A DNA stretch of 46,142 nt from sequence record MZ997841.1; one strand, written 5' to 3'. Position numbers and translations under genes: made by a program. Numbering within the stretch: position 1 is the first letter of the stretch; every line of letters starts with the position of its first letter. Of the stretch, positions 6,722 through 14,520 are shown piece after piece. A model generated the notes under the pieces. That model did no database searches. It had not been told where the DNA came from and saw only the letters and a list, made by a program, of their open reading frames with translations. Source of the DNA: Escherichia phage ULINTec7.

Positions 6722-7875
6722 ATGGCTATTATTAATAACATCCCATGTCCTCAATGTCAGAAGAATGGACACGATAAATCAGGCAACCACCTTATGATAT
6801 TCGAGGATGGTGCTGGGTACTGTAACCGTGGTCACTTCCATGATAATGGCAGACCTTACTACCATAAGCCTGAAGGGGGCATCGAGATAACCGAGTTGCC
6901 TATTACTGGCAATATCAAATATACACCTTCCCAGTTTAAAGAGATGGAGAAGGAAGGGAAGATTAGCGACCCTAAGCTACGCGCCATCGCACTTGGTGGT
7001 ATGCGTATGAAAGACCGTTGGGAGGTTATGAATGAGCAAGAAAGGGCAGACCAAGAAACAGAGTGGAAACTTGATGTTGAATGGTTCCTCACGCTTAAGC
7101 GTAAGAATCTTGTTTCCCGACACATTCGCGGCGACATTTGCGCATTGTATGATGTACGGGTCGGACACGATGAAGAAGGTAGAGTCTCACGGCATTACTA
7201 TCCACGCTTCGAAAAATGTGAGCTAGTAGGCGCTAAGTGTCGCACATTACCTAAAGACTTTAAGTTTGGTCATTTAGGTAAACTATTTGGTATGCAAGAT
7301 CTTTTCGGTATGAATACTTTGTCTCACGTGTTAGACAAGGGAAGACGAAAGGATTGCTTGCTTATTGTCGGCGGCGAACTGGATGCACTAGCAGCACAGC
7401 AAATGCTCCTTGATTCTGCCAAGGGTACTAAGTGGGAAGGCCAGCCTTACCATGTATGGTCTGTCAATAAAGGTGAGTCTTGCCTTGAAGAGATAGTACA
7501 GAACCGTGAACACATCGCCCAATTTAAGAAGATTATATGGGGTTTTGATGGAGATGAGGTAGGGCAGAAGCAGAATCAGCAAGCGGCTCGCCTGTTTCCT
7601 GGCAAATCCTATATCCTTGAGTACCCTTCTGGTTGCAAAGATGCCAACAAGGCATTGATGGCTGGCAAGGCTAAAGAGTTTGTTGATGCATGGTTTAATG
7701 CCAAGTCATCTGATGAAGTCTTTGGTAGCCAGATTAAATCTATCGCATCTCAAAGGGATAAGCTCAAGGCTGCACGTCCAGAGCAAGGACTATCATGGCC
7801 TTGGCCTAAGCTGAACAAGGTAACGCTAGGTATTCGTAAGAACCAACTTATCATTGTAGGCGCAGGCTCTGGCGT
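6722..7875 (+). CDS. DNA primase-helicase, exon 1 (zinc ribbon, TOPRIM, start of helicase Walker A)
   Basis: CPQC...C..GHFH zinc ribbon and LLIVGGELDALAAQQ TOPRIM resemble T7 gp4. The ORF continues to ...LIIVGAGSGV and then runs into a stop at 7895-7897 within inserted sequence; the proposed exon ends at 7875. Confidence 0.7.
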
Positions 7876-8662
7876 TAACATTAGCGCCGCCATGTAGTAA
7901 TACATGGGCAATAATCGTGTGAACTCAGGGGAAGACTAGAACAGTTAATCCTGAGCCAAGCTAGGCACACCTCAAATTCAAAGGAGGTGTTATGCAATTT
8001 AAAGAAGTACCAGATCACAGTAATTATATTTGTTATGAGAATGGCACGGTTGTTAATCGTAAGACTGGAAAGGTCTTGAAAGAAGATACAACTAACCGAG
8101 GTTATAAGCGGATTACAGTAAGCAAGGGCAACAAGGTAACACGTTGGAGTGTGCACCGTTTAGTTGCTTTACTGTTTATCCCTAACCCTCATAATTATGA
8201 AACTGTTAATCACATATCGGGAGATAAGACGGATAACTCTGTTAGTAATCTTGAGTGGATGAGCCAAGAACAGAACCAAGCCCATGCTAAATATACAGGA
8301 CTGTGTCCTAAAGGTGAGGCTGTTGGCACTAATAAGTTCAAAGAGGCAACTATTCATCAAGTGTGCAAGCTAATAGAGAAAGGTTTATCTCGCGGTGAAA
8401 TTATGAAAGCAACGAGCATCTCTAAAGCAACCTTTGATGACATTCGTAGAAGGAAGACTTGGAAGCACGTATCTTGTTCATATAAATGGTGACAATCTGG
8501 TGTGCCTAGAAGGTGCAACGACTATCCCGAAAGGGAGTACAGCCAAGCGGCTGGAAGCGCACGACACCCATCGTGGGTGATGATATAGTCTGGTCTATAT
8601 GGGGACATATAGCAGTTCATAAGAGAACGGGCGTGGCTTAGCGAACCACGTCGAACATAACG
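7876..8662 (+). mobile_element. Putative group I intron carrying an HNH homing endonuclease ORF, inserted in the helicase Walker A codons
   Basis: The 5' exon ends in U (7875) and the insert ends in G (8662). Exon 3' end GGCGU can pair with intron GCGCC at 7884-7888 (P1 with a U.G wobble). The downstream frame opens right after a stop at 8658-8660 with GKTEF and no start codon. Joining gives the contiguous P-loop GAGSGVGKTEF. Confidence 0.6.
7992..8492 (+). CDS. HNH homing endonuclease (intron-encoded)
   Basis: 166 aa with HRLVALLFIPNP...VNHISGDKTDNSVSNLEW, a typical HNH/AP2-type motif; AGGAGG SD upstream; a paralog of the ORF at 10976. Confidence 0.85.
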   Translation: MQFKEVPDHSNYICYENGTVVNRKTGKVLKEDTTNRGYKRITVSKGNKVTRWSVHRLVALLFIPNPHNYETVNHISGDKTDNSVSNLEWMSQEQNQAHAKYTGLCPKGEAVGTNKFKEATIHQVCKLIEKGLSRGEIMKATSISKATFDDIRRRKTWKHVSCSYKW

Positions 8663-9497
8663 AGGTAAGACTGAGTTCCTTCGTGAAGTAGTTAAGCACC
8701 TCATTGAAGAACACGGTGAATCTGTAGGCATCATTTCTACAGAAGACCCGATGGTCAAGGTGTCCCGTGCTTTTATCGGCAAGTGGATTGATAAGCGTAT
8801 TGAGTTACCGCCAACCAACGACCCGAAAGAAGATGGATACCGTGAGGTGTTCGACTACACCGAGGAAGAAGCTAACGCCGCCATTGATTATGTAGCTGAT
8901 ACAGGTAAGCTGTTTGTGGCTGACCTAGAGGGTGACTATTCGATGGAAAAGGTAGAGCAAACTTGCCTAGAGTTTGAGGCTATGGGCATTTCTAATATCA
9001 TCATTGATAACTTAACGGGGATTAAATTAGATGAGCGTGCTTTTGGTGGGAAGGTTGGTGCACTTGATGAATGCGTCAAGCGGATTGGTACTATCAAAGA
9101 CCGACACCCGGTTACTATATTCCTTGTATCACACCTTACACGTCCTCCGGCAAACCGTACCCAACATGAAGAAGGTGGCGAAGTTATCCTTTCTGACTTC
9201 CGAGGCTCAGGCGCTATCGGATTCTGGGCATCTTACGCCTTGGGGATTGAGCGTAATACAAGAGCTGAAACGCTTGACGAAAGGACTACCACGTACATCT
9301 CATGTGTCAAAGACCGCGACCAAGGTATCTGGACTGGAACCAAGGTCATGCTTAAGGGTGACATTCAAACCGGACGTTTAATGGAACCACAAGCCCGTAC
9401 TAAGTCATTTGATACAGGTGAAGCAAGGCAACAAGAAGTGCCGGATTTACCGGACACTATAGAAGAGACAACCTTTGACGATGAACAGGAGTTTTAA
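8663..9497 (+). CDS. DNA primase-helicase, exon 2 (helicase RecA-like domain)
   Basis: Frame reads GKTEFLREVV... from 8663, through the ORF-track ATG at 8751, to DDEQEF. FLVSHLTRP and SDFRGSGAIGF...LGIERN resemble T7 gp4 helicase motifs. Exon 1 plus exon 2 is 1989 nt, a 662-aa product. Confidence 0.7.
9445..9467 (+). promoter_or_regulatory. Phage-RNAP promoter inside the helicase 3' coding region
   Basis: ATTTACCGGACACTATAGAAGAG matches the consensus. Confidence 0.65.
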
Positions 9498-9730: not shown

Positions 9731-10453
9731 ATGTATAAATTAGTATTGAATGTAGGTGATTATGTTCGTAACATCAATGAAGCCTCACGTCGTTATCGTT
9801 GCCGTGGTGTAGTGGCTCGTGTAAGTGAGAACATGTATCATGTAGAATATGAGGATGGTATTAAGGCTTCTTACCACAAGAAAACAGCACATAAATATCT
9901 TGAAAAGATTGTAGAGATAAACAATCAATGTAAGTGCATACATGATGAGGTTTGCGATAAGTGTGCACGTCAGGCAGTTAAAGCCTTTACCTTTGCTCAA
10001 CGTTATGGTTCTATGTATGGCGCTGGTCACAAGACCCTTGCAGAAGCAGCTTGGAAGACATTACAGTTTGAGCGTTCAAATGGACGACGCACCACAATTA
10101 AGAAAGAGCGCCGCAATGTAATCACTGGTAAGACTCAAAGTGAAATGATTAAGCAATGTGGCACTGCACTAGGTGTTACGCAGTTTAACACTCGTGCTCT
10201 TGGTAAATCCACAGGACAAGCTATGGTAAAGATTGGCGAAGCCATGATGCATCCAAATGTACCTGTACGAATCAGGGATGTTGACCATGCAATCACAGAA
10301 CACGGTACGCAACGACGTGTAATTAATAAGCATTTTGCCGACACTATAGAAGGTATTATTCGTAAGCAAGGGTTGAAAGGTCTTCACATCTTGAATGATG
10401 AAGAGTTACTGTACCTCCCTATTGTTACTGAAGAAACCTACGTGAATATCTAA
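9731..10453 (+). CDS. Hypothetical protein (240 aa)
   Basis: ORF with GGAG 7 nt upstream of the ATG at 9731; several Cys pairs in the N-terminal part. Confidence 0.55.
   Translation: MYKLVLNVGDYVRNINEASRRYRCRGVVARVSENMYHVEYEDGIKASYHKKTAHKYLEKIVEINNQCKCIHDEVCDKCARQAVKAFTFAQRYGSMYGAGHKTLAEAAWKTLQFERSNGRRTTIKKERRNVITGKTQSEMIKQCGTALGVTQFNTRALGKSTGQAMVKIGEAMMHPNVPVRIRDVDHAITEHGTQRRVINKHFADTIEGIIRKQGLKGLHILNDEELLYLPIVTEETYVNI
10334..10354 (+). promoter_or_regulatory. Phage-promoter-like sequence inside the ORF
   Basis: TTTTGCCGACACTATAGAAGG. Confidence 0.4.
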
Positions 10454-10463
10454 GGAGTTAATC

Positions 10464-10682
10464 ATGACTAAAGTATTAATTTATATGCGTGGACCTCATA
10501 AATGCTATGCAGTTGTAGCACCAAATGGTGTTAAGCCCTATAGTACTTCAAAAGGATTGGCATTAATAGGTGCTAGTAGTAGTGCAAGTTTCCAAATGGA
10601 ACTTTTTGGTCATTGGAATGAAAGGCAATTCCGTGAGGATTTTAAAGTCATTGGCAGCTTCATGGTGAAACATGCAGAATAA
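10464..10682 (+). CDS. Hypothetical protein (72 aa)
   Basis: Strong SD TAAGGAG before the ATG. Confidence 0.55.
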   Translation: MTKVLIYMRGPHKCYAVVAPNGVKPYSTSKGLALIGASSSASFQMELFGHWNERQFREDFKVIGSFMVKHAE

Positions 10683-10848
10683 ACATAGTCTTAAAATGTT
10701 CGATGGTCATGAAGACCTGCAAGCCAAGATTACTAACCAAGCCTTCCTGTTTGCACAGTTAACTATGGCTGAAGCAAAGAAGAATAGCCTGACGCGTGAA
10801 CAGGTTATCAAGGAAAGTGAAGTGAAACGTAAGATTCGCAGTCGATAA
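10672..10848 (+). CDS. Hypothetical small protein (58 aa)
   Basis: Hand-translated ORF overlapping the end of the upstream gene. Confidence 0.3.
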   Translation: MQNKHSLKMFDGHEDLQAKITNQAFLFAQLTMAEAKKNSLTREQVIKESEVKRKIRSR

Positions 10849-10854
10849 GTCAAG

Positions 10855-10878
10855 GGTTGTCTCACACGTGAGACAGCC
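10855..10878. promoter_or_regulatory. Conserved palindromic hairpin, copy 4 (loop variant CACACGTG)
   Basis: GGTTGTCTCACACGTGAGACAGCC: the stem is conserved while the central dinucleotide differs. Confidence 0.55.
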
Positions 10879-10908
10879 TTTCATCATATTGATTGGAGGA
10901 TTAACTTT

Positions 10909-11016
10909 ATGAATAACTACGACTCTGATTGGGATTTCTACGATTCAATGCAATCTAAACCAGAAAGGAGGGAGGATGAGTTCGAAACAGATCAAATGTA
11001 CGAGGATTTTTACTAA
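10909..11016 (+). CDS. Hypothetical small acidic protein (35 aa)
   Basis: Short ORF that overlaps the start of the HNH gene; weak call. Confidence 0.2.
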   Translation: MNNYDSDWDFYDSMQSKPERREDEFETDQMYEDFY

Positions 11017-11455
11017 CTACATCCTCTACTCTGATGGTCGAGTTCTTAACGAGAAAACCGGACAATATCTAAGAGGTTACTTAGATAAAGATGGGTATCA
11101 TATTATGAATATTAAAGGGAAACACCTTAAAGTTCATCGATTAGTTGCTATCCATTTCATACCTAACCCTAATAATTTACCTGAAGTTAACCATAAAGAT
11201 CATGACCGTCTAAACAATAATGATTGGAATCTAGAGTGGTGTACTCATCAAGATAACAACAAGCATAGCTTACATTTAGTAATAGCTTCTTGTGCTAAAC
11301 GCTATGACTTTATATCACCACAAGGTGTCCATGTAGAAGTCTATAACTTACGTGAGTTTTGTAGGAATAACAACCTACAGCAATCTCATATGGTTAAGGT
11401 GGCTAAAGGTAAAGTAAGACATCATAAAGGTTGGACTAATTATGCTAGATGTTGA
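10976..11455 (+). CDS. HNH homing endonuclease (free-standing)
   Basis: 159 aa with HRLVAIHFIPNP...VNHKDHDRLNNNDWNLEW; AGGAGGGAGG SD; paralog of the intron ORF at 7992. Confidence 0.85.
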   Translation: MSSKQIKCTRIFTNYILYSDGRVLNEKTGQYLRGYLDKDGYHIMNIKGKHLKVHRLVAIHFIPNPNNLPEVNHKDHDRLNNNDWNLEWCTHQDNNKHSLHLVIASCAKRYDFISPQGVHVEVYNLREFCRNNNLQQSHMVKVAKGKVRHHKGWTNYARC

Positions 11456-13988
11456 TTGGAAAGAATTTGGAAAGAATCGCATACTTGTCATGGATGCTGA
11501 AAGTAAAGGTTTACTTGATGCTATCCGATATGGACACCGTGAAGATGTGCATATCATTTGCTGTATGGATTTGCTTACTACCGAGGAGTTTCTCTTCTTT
11601 GACCCGTATGAGATGCGTGACCCTGAAGCAAGAGAACGCCTGAAGGAATGGGAAGGTCATCAAGATGGAACCTTGGTTGACGGTGTTAACTTCCTGAAGC
11701 ACTGTGAGGCTATTGTGTCGCAGAACTTCCTAGGGTATGACGGTCTTCTCTTTGAGAAAGCATTCCCTGATATTTGGAAAGGCTTTAACTATACCGAGAA
11801 GCGCGGTAAGGGCAGACTCCGTGCTGACCTGTGTCCTATCCGTGTTGTAGATACGCTGGTGATGAGTCGTCTGCTAAACCCAGATAGACGCCTTCCTCCG
11901 CAAGCATATGCCAAAGGCATGGGTAACGTCGCCCCTCACTCAATTGAGGCGCACGGCATCCGTATAGGCCGCTATAAACCAGAGAATGAGGACTGGTCTA
12001 AACTAACTGACCACATGGTTCACCGTGTACGTGAAGACGTGGCAATTGGTCGTGACCTTTTCCTATGGCTTTACAACGGAGAGTGGACGGAGCACAAACG
12101 CCGTGGCGTGAATAAACGTACTGGCCTAGGTATTGAGACAGCCTTCCACATGGAGTCCATTGTGGCGCTGGAGATGAGCCGTCAGGCCGAGCGCGGGTTC
12201 CGTCTGGACATCGACAAGGCTTTGTCCCGATGCGAAGAATTGGACGCTAAGATTGACGAGACAGTCGCAGCGTTCCGCCCTCACATGCCTATGCGTATCA
12301 AGTCTAAACCTTTTAAACCGGAAGAAAAGAATGAAGTATGCCAACGCGCAAATGAGTATGGAGCTAGCAACAATATACCTACTGTCCTTGACCCCTCACA
12401 CTTTCTTCATGCCGAGAGACGAGGAGATCGCAAGACAGTATGGAGTGTCACTACTAAGTCTGGTGATTGGTCGGCTAGTGTCAAGAAAGACTTTCCTCAC
12501 CTTAGAGGAAACCGTAATGACACGCCAAGCATCAAGTGGATTGGCGCTTACTCGCCTGTTACTTTCGAAGAGATTCCCTTGGGTAACAGGGATACAGTTA
12601 AGCAAGTGCTCTATGATTATGGATGGAAAGGTGTTGAATTTAACGATACCGAGCAAGCGCATCTCGATGAGCACGGAGTGTTACCCAAACCTTGGAGTGG
12701 TAAGATAAATGAAAAGTCCCTTACTTTATGGCAAGAAAGAGCCGCACGTGAAGGTAAAACAGTCCCTGATTGGTGCTTGGGTATCGCTGCATGGTACATA
12801 CTCGTATCCCGTCGTGGTCAGATACTCAACCGTGGTGACGTTGAAGCCTTCAACGAGAAGGGAACGTGGCCCTCGCAGGCTGGTGTACGAAAGTGTCGCG
12901 GCCTTGTACCTGTAGCATTCAACAAGGAGCTAGGAATCAATGCGCAGCAATACTACGAGAGGTACGGATATTGGCCTACGTCTGACAAAGATGACGGAGA
13001 GTGGCGTGTTCCAGCTGTTGCTATTAGTATTGGCACTTCTACGTTCCGTATGCGTCATCGTAACGTGGTTAATATTCCTGCCCGTGGCTTGTATCCTTTA
13101 CGTGATTTATTCATAGCAGGGAAAGGCAAGCTAATCCTTGGTTGTGACGGTGCAGGTCTTGAACTGCGTGTCCTGTCTCACTTCATGAATGACCCTGAGT
13201 ACCAAGAGATTGTACTGCACGGTGATATTCATACGCATAACCAGATGAAGGCTGGTCTTCCTAAGCGTGATATGGCGAAGACGTTTATATACGCCTTCCT
13301 CTATGGCTCTGGTATAGCCAACCTTGCAGCAGTATGTGGTGTTACTGAGGAGGAAATGAAGGAAGTTGTGGCAAGATTCGAGATTGAACTGCCGTCTCTT
13401 GCACGTCTTCGTGAGAATGTTATCGCACAAGGTAACAAGTTTGGCTACCTGCAAGCACCTGATGGGCATTGGGGTCGCATCCGCATGTCTGGTGGTGAAC
13501 TTAAAGAGCACACTATGCTTAACGTATTACTCCAGATGACTGGCTCTTTGTGTATGAAATATGCATTAGTAAAGGCATTTGCAGTAATGCGCAAGGAAGG
13601 TGTAGCCTTGGATGCTATGGGAAGCCCTTGTGGTGTGGCTAACGTCCACGATGAAATCCAGATGGAAGTTCCTGAAGAAGAGGTCTTGTACCTTAACTAT
13701 GACCTACCTTTCACCTTAGAAGGGTTTGAAACAGAGAAGGCTGCTGTGAAAGCAGTGTTCGATGCAGAAGAGAAACGTGTTCATGTGGATTCTGAAGGAC
13801 GTATGTGGTCTGCTGCAAACCTCGTTAGTGTTGATGCTGATGCTGGTGTACTTCATTGTCAGCGCCGTTATCACCGTGCTGGGCATATCATTGCCGACGC
13901 CATGACTTGGGCTGGTCAGTATCTGAAGATGCGTTGCCCGATGGCAGGAGAATATAAGATTGGCACAAGTTGGAAGGAAACACACTGA
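11442..13988 (+). CDS. DNA polymerase (family A, T7 gp5-like)
   Basis: N-terminal exo motif ILVMDAESKG resembles T7 MIVSDIEAN; GCDGAGLELRVLSHF, GDIHTHNQ...AKTFIYAFLYG and HDEIQ polymerase motifs. Start is uncertain between 11442 and 11490. Confidence 0.93.
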   Translation: MLDVDWKEFGKNRILVMDAESKGLLDAIRYGHREDVHIICCMDLLTTEEFLFFDPYEMRDPEARERLKEWEGHQDGTLVDGVNFLKHCEAIVSQNFLGYDGLLFEKAFPDIWKGFNYTEKRGKGRLRADLCPIRVVDTLVMSRLLNPDRRLPPQAYAKGMGNVAPHSIEAHGIRIGRYKPENEDWSKLTDHMVHRVREDVAIGRDLFLWLYNGEWTEHKRRGVNKRTGLGIETAFHMESIVALEMSRQAERGFRLDIDKALSRCEELDAKIDETVAAFRPHMPMRIKSKPFKPEEKNEVCQRANEYGASNNIPTVLDPSHFLHAERRGDRKTVWSVTTKSGDWSASVKKDFPHLRGNRNDTPSIKWIGAYSPVTFEEIPLGNRDTVKQVLYDYGWKGVEFNDTEQAHLDEHGVLPKPWSGKINEKSLTLWQERAAREGKTVPDWCLGIAAWYILVSRRGQILNRGDVEAFNEKGTWPSQAGVRKCRGLVPVAFNKELGINAQQYYERYGYWPTSDKDDGEWRVPAVAISIGTSTFRMRHRNVVNIPARGLYPLRDLFIAGKGKLILGCDGAGLELRVLSHFMNDPEYQEIVLHGDIHTHNQMKAGLPKRDMAKTFIYAFLYGSGIANLAAVCGVTEEEMKEVVARFEIELPSLARLRENVIAQGNKFGYLQAPDGHWGRIRMSGGELKEHTMLNVLLQMTGSLCMKYALVKAFAVMRKEGVALDAMGSPCGVANVHDEIQMEVPEEEVLYLNYDLPFTLEGFETEKAAVKAVFDAEEKRVHVDSEGRMWSAANLVSVDADAGVLHCQRRYHRAGHIIADAMTWAGQYLKMRCPMAGEYKIGTSWKETH

Positions 13989-14104
13989 TGGATAGGCTTG
14001 ACATTGTTTGCCTGTTCTTCACTTTCTTTCTTACACTCCTTATGCTTGCTTGTTATGGGAGTGTGAGACTAGATATACCTGATGAAGAAGAGGGTTACGA
14101 CTAA
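13988..14104 (+). CDS. Hypothetical small hydrophobic protein (38 aa)
   Basis: ATG overlaps the polymerase stop; hand-translated. Confidence 0.25.
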   Translation: MDRLDIVCLFFTFFLTLLMLACYGSVRLDIPDEEEGYD

Positions 14105-14202
14105 TGCAAACTGCTTTTATTATTCTTGGTGTCGTATTATTTATGGTAGTACTCTGGGCCTTCTCTGGCATTGACCCGGATTGTGATGGTAACTACGACT
14201 GA
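14104..14202 (+). CDS. Hypothetical small membrane peptide (32 aa)
   Basis: TAATG overlap with the previous ORF; single hydrophobic segment. Confidence 0.25.
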   Translation: MQTAFIILGVVLFMVVLWAFSGIDPDCDGNYD

Positions 14203-14259
14203 GTTATACTCAAGGTCACTTACGAGTGGCCTTTATGAATAACTTAACTGGAGAGTATT

Positions 14260-14520
14260 ATGATTAAATCACAGAAGTATTTCTCAACTAAAGATCGTAA
14301 GGTAGGTTTTGAAATCAAAGTTTGGGAAGACGGACACATTACTATTATTTATGAAGGTAAAGGTTCTAATGGTATGATGCTACGCAGATGCCGTACATTC
14401 ACAAAGAAAGAATGTATGCATATGTCTGAATGCATGTTTCTTTACATCATTGCTGATGATATTAAAGGTATGAAGCTAATTGTATCTCTACCTTTAATAC
14501 CTAAATCTTTGTTAGGTTGA
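14260..14520 (+). CDS. Hypothetical protein (86 aa)
   Basis: ORF with GGAG SD. Confidence 0.5.
   Translation: MIKSQKYFSTKDRKVGFEIKVWEDGHITIIYEGKGSNGMMLRRCRTFTKKECMHMSECMFLYIIADDIKGMKLIVSLPLIPKSLLG

Follow-up and report, generated by a model that had tools for sequence, protein, structure and literature searches.

The open reading frame (ORF) at 10976-11455 in Escherichia phage ULINTec7 probably encodes a working I-HmuI-type homing endonuclease, free-standing, that would home into the 5′ region of the DNA polymerase gene in phages that lack it. We infer both activity and target from sequence comparison. The window, by which we mean the whole 46,142-nucleotide stretch that was analysed (MZ997841.1), is the complete-length, mosaic genome of a Vectrevirus (a K1E/SP6-like coliphage; Autographiviridae, Molineuxvirinae) and shares about 95% identity with the best matches in the databases. 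The features on which the argument rests are the following.

10852-10881, + strand: conserved 13-bp hairpin (from folding) that separates the small ORF from the gene before it; context, outside the cassette
10900-11519, + strand: exchanged cassette of 620 nt (from comparison with T147P1), comprising a 108-nt diverged left flank, a 442-nt insertion (11008-11449) and a 70-nt diverged right flank
10909-11016, + strand: small ORF of 35 aa (K1E gp11.5; C-terminal part of SP6 gp13 and K1-5 gp12), HNH-linked allele (ORF tables, PHROG)
10964-10975, + strand: strong Shine-Dalgarno sequence of the HNH gene (AAAGGAGGGAGG), within the upstream small ORF (duplex with the 16S 3′ end)
10976-11455, + strand: HNH homing endonuclease gene, I-HmuI-like, 159 aa (ORF, Pfam, PHROG, PDB sequence and fold matches)
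10996-11008, + strand: relic of the ancestral junction between the gp11.5 end and the polymerase start (ATGTACGAGGATT) (comparison with empty sites)
11189-11257, + strand: HNH catalytic core, N72-H73...N94, equivalent to I-HmuI D74-H75...N96 (alignment to 1U3E)
11442-11455, + strand: 14-nt overlap of the upstream ORF stop and the polymerase start (ATGCTAGATGTTGA) (comparison with relatives)
11442-13988, + strand: DNA polymerase gene, family A, 848 aa, start at 11442 retained (ORF, T7 match, conserved N-terminus, Shine-Dalgarno)
11460-11477, + strand: polymerase codons 7-12 (KEFGKN), candidate immunity polymorphisms and, in HNH-less phages, candidate target (codon comparison)

The HNH gene runs from an ATG to a TGA and is intact; it ends 14 nt inside the polymerase ORF, as an earlier sequence-only reading of this DNA had noted. 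That reading also called the product a free-standing, homing-type HNH endonuclease, and Pfam, PHROG and structural comparison all agree. The protein matches Pfam HNH_3 (E 1.3e-5, 25.1 bits with a cut-off of 24.8), is assigned together with the other HNH protein of the window to PHROG 59 'HNH endonuclease', and has a C-terminal match to the I-HmuI_NUMOD-like domain that is sub-threshold (16.1 bits vs 27). When the whole PDB was searched by sequence, I-HmuI (1U3E) was the sole real match (E 3.5e-16), with about 31% identity across an alignment that spans residues 14-154 of our protein and 12-167 of the 174-residue enzyme. In this alignment H73 pairs with I-HmuI H75, the general base, and N94 pairs with N96. 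An AlphaFold2 model built from an alignment of 43 homologues had a mean pLDDT of 93.6, and with this model Foldseek returned 1U3E as the only significant PDB match (E 1.1e-11, prob 1.00, 174 aligned columns). The global TM-score between the two is only about 0.5, which we attribute to I-HmuI being an extended, multi-domain protein that was crystallised wrapped around DNA. The modelled layout, with beta strands at residues 8-52, a core at 70-106 and C-terminal strands and helices at 125-143, matches the three-domain architecture of I-HmuI-like enzymes, in which a beta DNA-binding domain at the N-terminus is followed by the HNH (beta-beta-alpha-metal) core and then by a helix-turn-helix at the C-terminus.

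One active-site position differs from I-HmuI, since Asn72 stands where that enzyme has the metal-ligand position Asp74; the T205P4 and ZK1 alleles have Asp. The Asn would fit a gene that is an inactive or decaying remnant, one that persists merely because the polymerase depends on its 3′ end for a start codon and a ribosome-binding region, which would bar a clean deletion, and so would three further observations: the polymerase Shine-Dalgarno sequence (AAAGGTTGGA) falls in the conserved HHKGW codons of the nuclease, one metagenomic allele stops six codons early, and only about 12 of some 137 related records carry the cassette. However, Asn72 appears to be the subfamily norm and not a lesion because it is at least 90% conserved among the 43 homologues, and H73, D75 and N94 are invariant in the same alignment. 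The ORF is full-length in eight of nine same-site HNH alleles, the eight intact ones ranging from 47 to 99% identity, and pairwise dN/dS among the same-site alleles is 0.09-0.42, although with dS near or beyond saturation. A very strong Shine-Dalgarno sequence (-12.1 kcal/mol with the 16S 3′ end) and a near-identical cassette across diverged backbones, which indicates recent spread, likewise argue against a remnant, and we consider this explanation unlikely. The truncated allele (locus L094 1201-1659; ENA ERZ27275858 contig k141_11547) has TGG changed to TAG in the HHKGW motif (KG*TKY), with loss of the last six codons, and looks like a decaying copy; the polymerase downstream of it still begins at the homologous ATG.

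The window holds one other HNH gene of this kind, ORF 7992-8492, and tblastn with either protein returned just these two loci in the window, with no third such gene. BLASTP aligned the two proteins at 30% identity over 158 columns (E 7e-22), and the signature that had been read from both ORFs was confirmed at a level far beyond chance: the alignment takes in TNYILYSDGRVLNEKTG / SNYICYENGTVVNRKTG and VHRLVA..FIPNP....VNH...D..N...NLEW. The similarity exceeds the HNH motif, as the N-terminal DNA-binding domain (the NYI.Y..G.V.N.KTG region) aligns too. The two genes had also been described as paralogous. Homology stands; duplication within the genome is not supported, because each nuclease is closer to proteins of other phages than to its counterpart and the C-terminal DNA-binding domains differ (in Pfam, I-HmuI NUMOD-like in the 10976 protein vs HTH_7 in the 7992 protein). 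Relatives of the 10976 protein at 40-67% identity occur in Vibrio, Erwinia, Klebsiella and Pseudomonas phages and in metagenomes. The 7992 protein, which matches HNH_3 at 2.6e-8, is found at 99.4% in ULINTec6 alone within the phage collection, followed by Klebsiella Kp_Z1 (60%) and others at 36-46%. The two nucleases are therefore best read as family members acquired independently, with different targets, and not as recent paralogues. Alike as they are in family (PHROG 59, HNH_3) and across the N-terminal domain and catalytic core, the 7992 ORF sits in the intervening sequence of a split gene, whereas the 10976 ORF does not. The split gene is the primase/helicase (6722-7897 and 8751-9497), with about 850 nt between its parts (about 7898-8750). 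Rfam gave sub-threshold group I intron signals near ORF 7992, at 8329-8612 (37.2 bits, gathering threshold 50, E 1.3e-7) and 7867-8229 (17.9 bits).

Annotated relatives and a six-way alignment revealed three states at the junction upstream of the polymerase gene: empty, occupied by a 72-aa gp12 gene, or occupied by an HNH gene. About 137 phage records share the site region and are the denominator for occupancy. In ACG-C91 and T147P1 nothing occupies the site; 35 records (K1E and 34 more) have the full-length 72-aa gene, and about 12 records have an HNH gene, with alleles at 47-100% identity. The latter are at 99-100% in the window, LL11, T147P9 and LI10P5, 61% in ULINTec4 and Sem1-4, 52% in T205P4 and 47% in Klebsiella phage ZK1. 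Three further same-site alleles came from metagenome assemblies (67%, 62% and 48%; order small ORF, HNH, DNA_pol_A), and IMG/VR contributed only two more loci at this site, one being LL11 itself and the other a T205P4-like contig. In SP6 and K1-5 the small ORF is longer and there is no insert, again with a 14-nt overlap. Comparison with SP6-like genomes had been suggested as a check on whether the ORF is inserted, and it is indeed an insertion relative to T147P1, whose flanks are near-identical. A presence/absence polymorphism at one precise site among close relatives is a hallmark of homing genes, and the alignments place this gene in that pattern.

Members of the HNH subfamily are also found elsewhere. 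In Pseudomonas phage MR4, which belongs to another genus, a 44% relative lies directly upstream of the polymerase gene and overlaps it. P0014, a 55% relative, was considered as a same-site allele and rejected, as it sits after the RNA polymerase gene in another phage. Two Logan contigs of other podophages (L096 and L097) have a 55% HNH relative immediately after the RNA polymerase gene, a placement which implies that the subfamily has settled at further gene borders, too, within the early and replication region. The gp12 product (K1E locus L003 1995-2213) is cysteine-rich (CxC...CxxC) and belongs to PHROG 12821, and its N-terminal 43 aa have relatives upstream of primase genes in Klebsiella phages.

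The junctions retain a record of how the site was rebuilt. Empty-site phages have ATGTATGAAGATT on one side of the junction and GTTGATTGG on the other, with the polymerase ATG where the window has ACG (11000-11002). The small ORF of ACG-C91 and T147P1 ends in ATG TAT GAA GAT TGT TGA with the polymerase ATG inside it (ATGAAGATTGTTGATTGG), giving the 14-nt overlap. Carriers have CAAATGTACGAGGATT followed across the left junction by TTTACTAAC, and the old polymerase start is retained as HNH codons 8-11 (C-T-R-I), the HNH gene being read here in the same frame as the ancestral polymerase start was. The window, LL11, ULINTec4 and locus L093 have ACG in place of the former polymerase ATG, and T205P4, ZK1 and locus L092 have kept the ATG (C-M-R-I). 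K1E gp12 takes the ancestral polymerase ATG as its start, and its end reaches 14 nt into a polymerase start that has been created anew. The original HNH insertion would have borrowed the initiation signals of the polymerase, as K1E gene 12 still does, and the MSSKQIKC extension together with the strong Shine-Dalgarno sequence was presumably a later refinement within the small-ORF allele that is specific to the cassette. The conserved HHKGW(T/S/R)xY C-terminus gives, at the right junction, a purine-rich stretch before a new ATG-x-x, which joins the polymerase at [GA]TTGATTGG. A programmed fusion of HNH and polymerase was considered and rejected, as the frames differ and the TGA at 11453-11455 closes the HNH frame.

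The small ORF, which overlaps the HNH start by 41 nt, belongs to PHROG 15473 (E 3e-15), and its DNA is 38% diverged from the T147P1 allele, although the genome is otherwise 99.7% identical. The Shine-Dalgarno stretch of the HNH gene is confined to this HNH-linked allele. The small ORF of T205P4 is a chimera that begins as the empty type and ends as the carrier type, which puts the obligatory left edge of the element close to the ribosome-binding site of the HNH gene.

Comparison with T147P1 delimits the exchanged segment. Outside 10900-11519 the two genomes differ at 12 positions in about 3,900 aligned nt (0.2-0.6% divergence), while within the cassette the flanks have 41 of 108 mismatches on the left and 23 of 70 on the right (33-38%). 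The same 620 nt are 99-100% identical in LL11, T147P9 and LI10P5, whose neighbouring DNA is 2-17% different. Over the 480 nt that follow the cassette, the window is 10.6% from T147P9, 4.6% from LI10P5, 8.3% from LL11 and 0.2% from T147P1. Since cassette and downstream identities disagree, the window is read as a T147P1-like backbone with an LL11/T147P9-type cassette and short converted flanks. On the evidence of these alignments, this is the classic footprint of homing with co-conversion, and the horizontal spread with flank co-conversion, in which the cassette appears to have a history unlike that of the backbone, is a further hallmark of homing genes. The pair of window and T147P1 by itself gives no direction, as T147P1 could have lost the cassette through recombination with an empty-site phage. 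Taken across genomes, the comparisons show a cassette, lodged exactly at the boundary of the small ORF and the polymerase gene, that recombines among Vectrevirus genomes independently of their backbones, brings its own ribosome-binding site and start inside a cassette-specific small-ORF allele, and supplies the polymerase with a replacement start codon and first codons. Other mosaic boundaries lie close by. Positions 11520-12000 are 0.2% from T147P1 and 8-11% from LL11 and T147P9, and the stretch 13000-14400 differs from T147P9 and ULINTec4 by 25-31%, with gaps. In ULINTec4 a shortened polymerase coding sequence is followed by a 'putative endonuclease' gene, which suggests that relatives have a further mobile element close to the 3′ end of the polymerase gene.

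A gene ancestral to the phage group and lost repeatedly would also be polymorphic, by deletion in place of insertion or homing. Diverged alleles (47-67%) occur at exactly the same site in Vectrevirus and Klebsiella phage ZK1 and, taken with the MR4 relative directly upstream of its polymerase, imply long residence. However, SP6 (Zindervirus), K1-5 and most Vectrevirus records do not have the gene, and the empty sites are seamless, with the same 14-nt gp11.5 overlap and no scar. The left flank of HNH carriers contains a mutated copy of the polymerase start, as insertion predicts, and the disagreement between cassette and backbone histories also speaks against simple loss. We regard repeated deletion as quite improbable.

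I-HmuI-type enzymes are known to favour the markers of their carrier in mixed infection, which could also be taken to support a housekeeping or defensive role (host DNA degradation, packaging help, or exclusion of competitors without homing) in place of a selfish mobile gene. Some phage HNH proteins assist terminases (PMC3592412, PMC5304195), but such a role is scarcely plausible for a gene that is located far away from those for packaging, whose product has sequence-reading domains in the I-HmuI architecture as opposed to the terminase-associated HNH type, and that is missing from closely related viable phages.

The whole polymerase matches T7 DNA polymerase in the PDB (E 5.5e-30) with an alignment that stops short of the N-terminus, and a PDB sequence search with its first 200 aa gave no match. 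The sequence-only reading had suggested, on account of the overlap, that the true polymerase start may be the downstream ATG at 11490; this did not hold up. The same 14-nt overlap is present in SP6 (gp13/pol), K1-5 (12/13), K1E (12/13), ACG-C91 and T147P1 (small ORF/pol), LL11, ULINTec4 and ZK1, and its pattern, ATGnnnnnn[GA]TTGA, is kept also where no insert exists. The overlap is evidently ancestral and independent of the HNH gene. The residues encoded between 11442 and 11490 are conserved in SP6, K1-5, K1E, ZK1 and the empty-site phages (M-x-x-[VI]-[DN]-W...GR[IL]LVMDAE), and 20 related sequences share the N-terminus M-x-x-[VIF]-[DN]-W-x-x-x-x-x-x-R-[IL]-L-V-M-D-x-E. Among HNH-less phages, polymerase codons 4-16 have 4, 1 and 5 variable sites at codon positions 1, 2 and 3. 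The ATG at 11442 has a Shine-Dalgarno pairing of -5.7 kcal/mol at a spacing of 6, and the polymerase starts of relatives have -5.6 to -9.3; at 11490 the pairing is just -0.9 kcal/mol, i.e. no ribosome-binding site. The internal Met cannot be a general start because the MR4 polymerase has Gly in its place (GRFLVGDLE). By these comparisons the polymerase start stays at 11442, as in relatives. RILVMDAE resembles the hydrophobic strand and DxE of the Exo I motif of family A polymerases (MIVSDIE in T7). With a start at M17 this presumed Exo I strand would be lost, a point that we offer as a lead only.

Eight matches to SP6-type promoters (consensus ATTTACTGGACACTATAGAAG-like; none expected by chance) lie at 2389, 9445, 10332, 14520, 16527, 19677, 24710 and 41248. 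None was found between 10352 and 14520, so the HNH gene would have no promoter of its own and would be read on the replication-gene transcript. Scanning 10300-11700 for terminators and sigma-70 promoters gave no terminator and one weak promoter-like site, below shuffle expectation. Rfam had no match at gathering thresholds anywhere in the window, and we therefore assign no RNA element to the site. Outside the cassette, the hairpin at 10852-10881 (GGGTTGTCTCACA/TGTGAGACAGCCT region) is perfect, lies just past the stop of ORF 10672-10848, and is near-invariant in six phages (-23.3 kcal/mol, z -4.1). As it is without a T-run it is not a classic intrinsic terminator, and it may be an RNase III site or a pause or termination site for the phage RNA polymerase. 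The strongest Shine-Dalgarno pairings among the starts that were checked belong to the two HNH genes (7972-7991, -12.9 kcal/mol; 10956-10975, -12.1 kcal/mol), with neighbours at -2.8 to -9.3. The strong sequences of both genes are unexpected, given that low expression is usually assumed for homing endonucleases.

The first polymerase codons suggest a target. In all HNH-less sequences examined, codons 7-12 read AAG AAG GAR GCA GAA GGN (KKEAEG; AKEAEG in SP6). All nine HNH carriers differ at codons 8 and 11, codon 8 never being AAG and codon 11 never GAA, an association that is partly by descent as the carrier alleles share ancestry. The carrier peptides are KEFGKN, KEYGKN, KEHSKN, KEAAKG, KKAGQG, KQEAKG and AKEAKG. 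A scan of IMG/VR for the HNH-less motif found nine loci, eight of them polymerase loci, and none of the eight had HNH upstream (gp12 in three, five empty); six of the HNH-less sequences were picked from IMG/VR by the motif itself, which leaves five as the unbiased HNH-less set.

We propose that in a mixed infection the enzyme would nick or cut the polymerase 5′ region of phages without the HNH gene, most likely at about polymerase codons 6-12 (...TGG AAG AAG GAR GCA GAA GG...). Recombinational repair would then transfer the nuclease gene to the cut genome along with short tracts on either side of it. The allele of the carrier would be protected by its substitutions in those codons, and the polymerase would be translated from the ATG at 11442 in carriers, as in all relatives. 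The earlier reading also suggested that the two nucleases could exclude related phages, a known behaviour of the I-HmuI-type enzyme family. Enzymes of this family are strand-specific nicking endonucleases that target phage DNA polymerase genes a few nt from the insertion site (PMC3428280), and a target 20-35 nt from the junction fits because they nick near that site. More generally, homing endonuclease genes cluster beside essential genes and at recombination boundaries (PMC10448857).

A broader interpretation, speculative and rather unlikely, is that the gp11.5/polymerase junction is a contested landing site for two unrelated selfish or accessory cassettes, HNH and the zinc-ribbon-like gp12, each of which hijacks the original polymerase start and ribosome-binding site, supplies a replacement start and couples polymerase translation to the insert. 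If so, the coupling would be a form of addiction that makes the insert hard to lose, and polymerase dosage would depend on the resident cassette. Since the predicted target motif is retained in gp12 carriers, gp12 should on this view give way to the HNH cassette when such phages are crossed.

For annotation, we recommend that the ORF be named a free-standing I-HmuI-like HNH homing endonuclease, neither an intron ORF nor a paralogue, and that 10900-11519 be treated as a recombining cassette in phylogenies and in Vectrevirus species definition. As the window phage and T147P1 are more than 99% identical around the site and the predicted target is only a few codons long, nature offers in them a clean pair for testing homing simply in a T7-like group of therapeutic phages, where homing endonucleases can shuffle markers between phages combined in cocktails. 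Our literature search returned general homing-endonuclease papers and a preprint that notes two extra HNH genes in Vectrevirus CROW5 relative to K1-5, with no study of this element.

The closest known forms of the gene are in sister phages. LL11 gp17 (YP_009812380.1, 'HNH endonuclease') is 99.4% identical with the same site and overlap, and ULINTec4 UCR91769.1 ('HNH homing endonuclease') is the 61% allele at the same site; both are the same element. An intron-encoded endonuclease, as the ULINTec4 note 'Phage intron' has it, was rejected, as neither the small ORF nor the polymerase gene is split and Rfam has no intron there at gathering score. The gene is thus already known, annotated in LL11 and as a diverged allele in ULINTec4, and is an ordinary selfish element; the junction anatomy, the three-state site and the candidate target add useful detail that is not surprising.

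Among characterised enzymes, I-HmuI (Bacillus phage SPO1; 1U3E), with I-HmuII, I-BasI and I-TslI, has the same three-part architecture and HNH core, and both I-HmuI and the 10976 gene are tied to a phage DNA polymerase gene. The I-HmuI gene, however, belongs to a group I intron that interrupts the polymerase gene midway, whereas the 10976 gene is free-standing, lies upstream of the polymerase start with a 14-nt overlap, and encodes Asn where I-HmuI has Asp74. The free-standing homing genes of T4-like phages (mobE, segG and others) are alike in their gene-boundary location by essential genes and their patchy distribution among close relatives, and for the T4-like genes co-conversion of flanking markers and protection by target polymorphisms are also described (PMC2790892, PMC2988022). 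For the 10976 element the likeness is one of sequence pattern. Unlike the T4-like genes, the 10976 cassette is in the Autographiviridae, Molineuxvirinae, rebuilds the start of an essential gene, and has its own start embedded in the upstream ORF.
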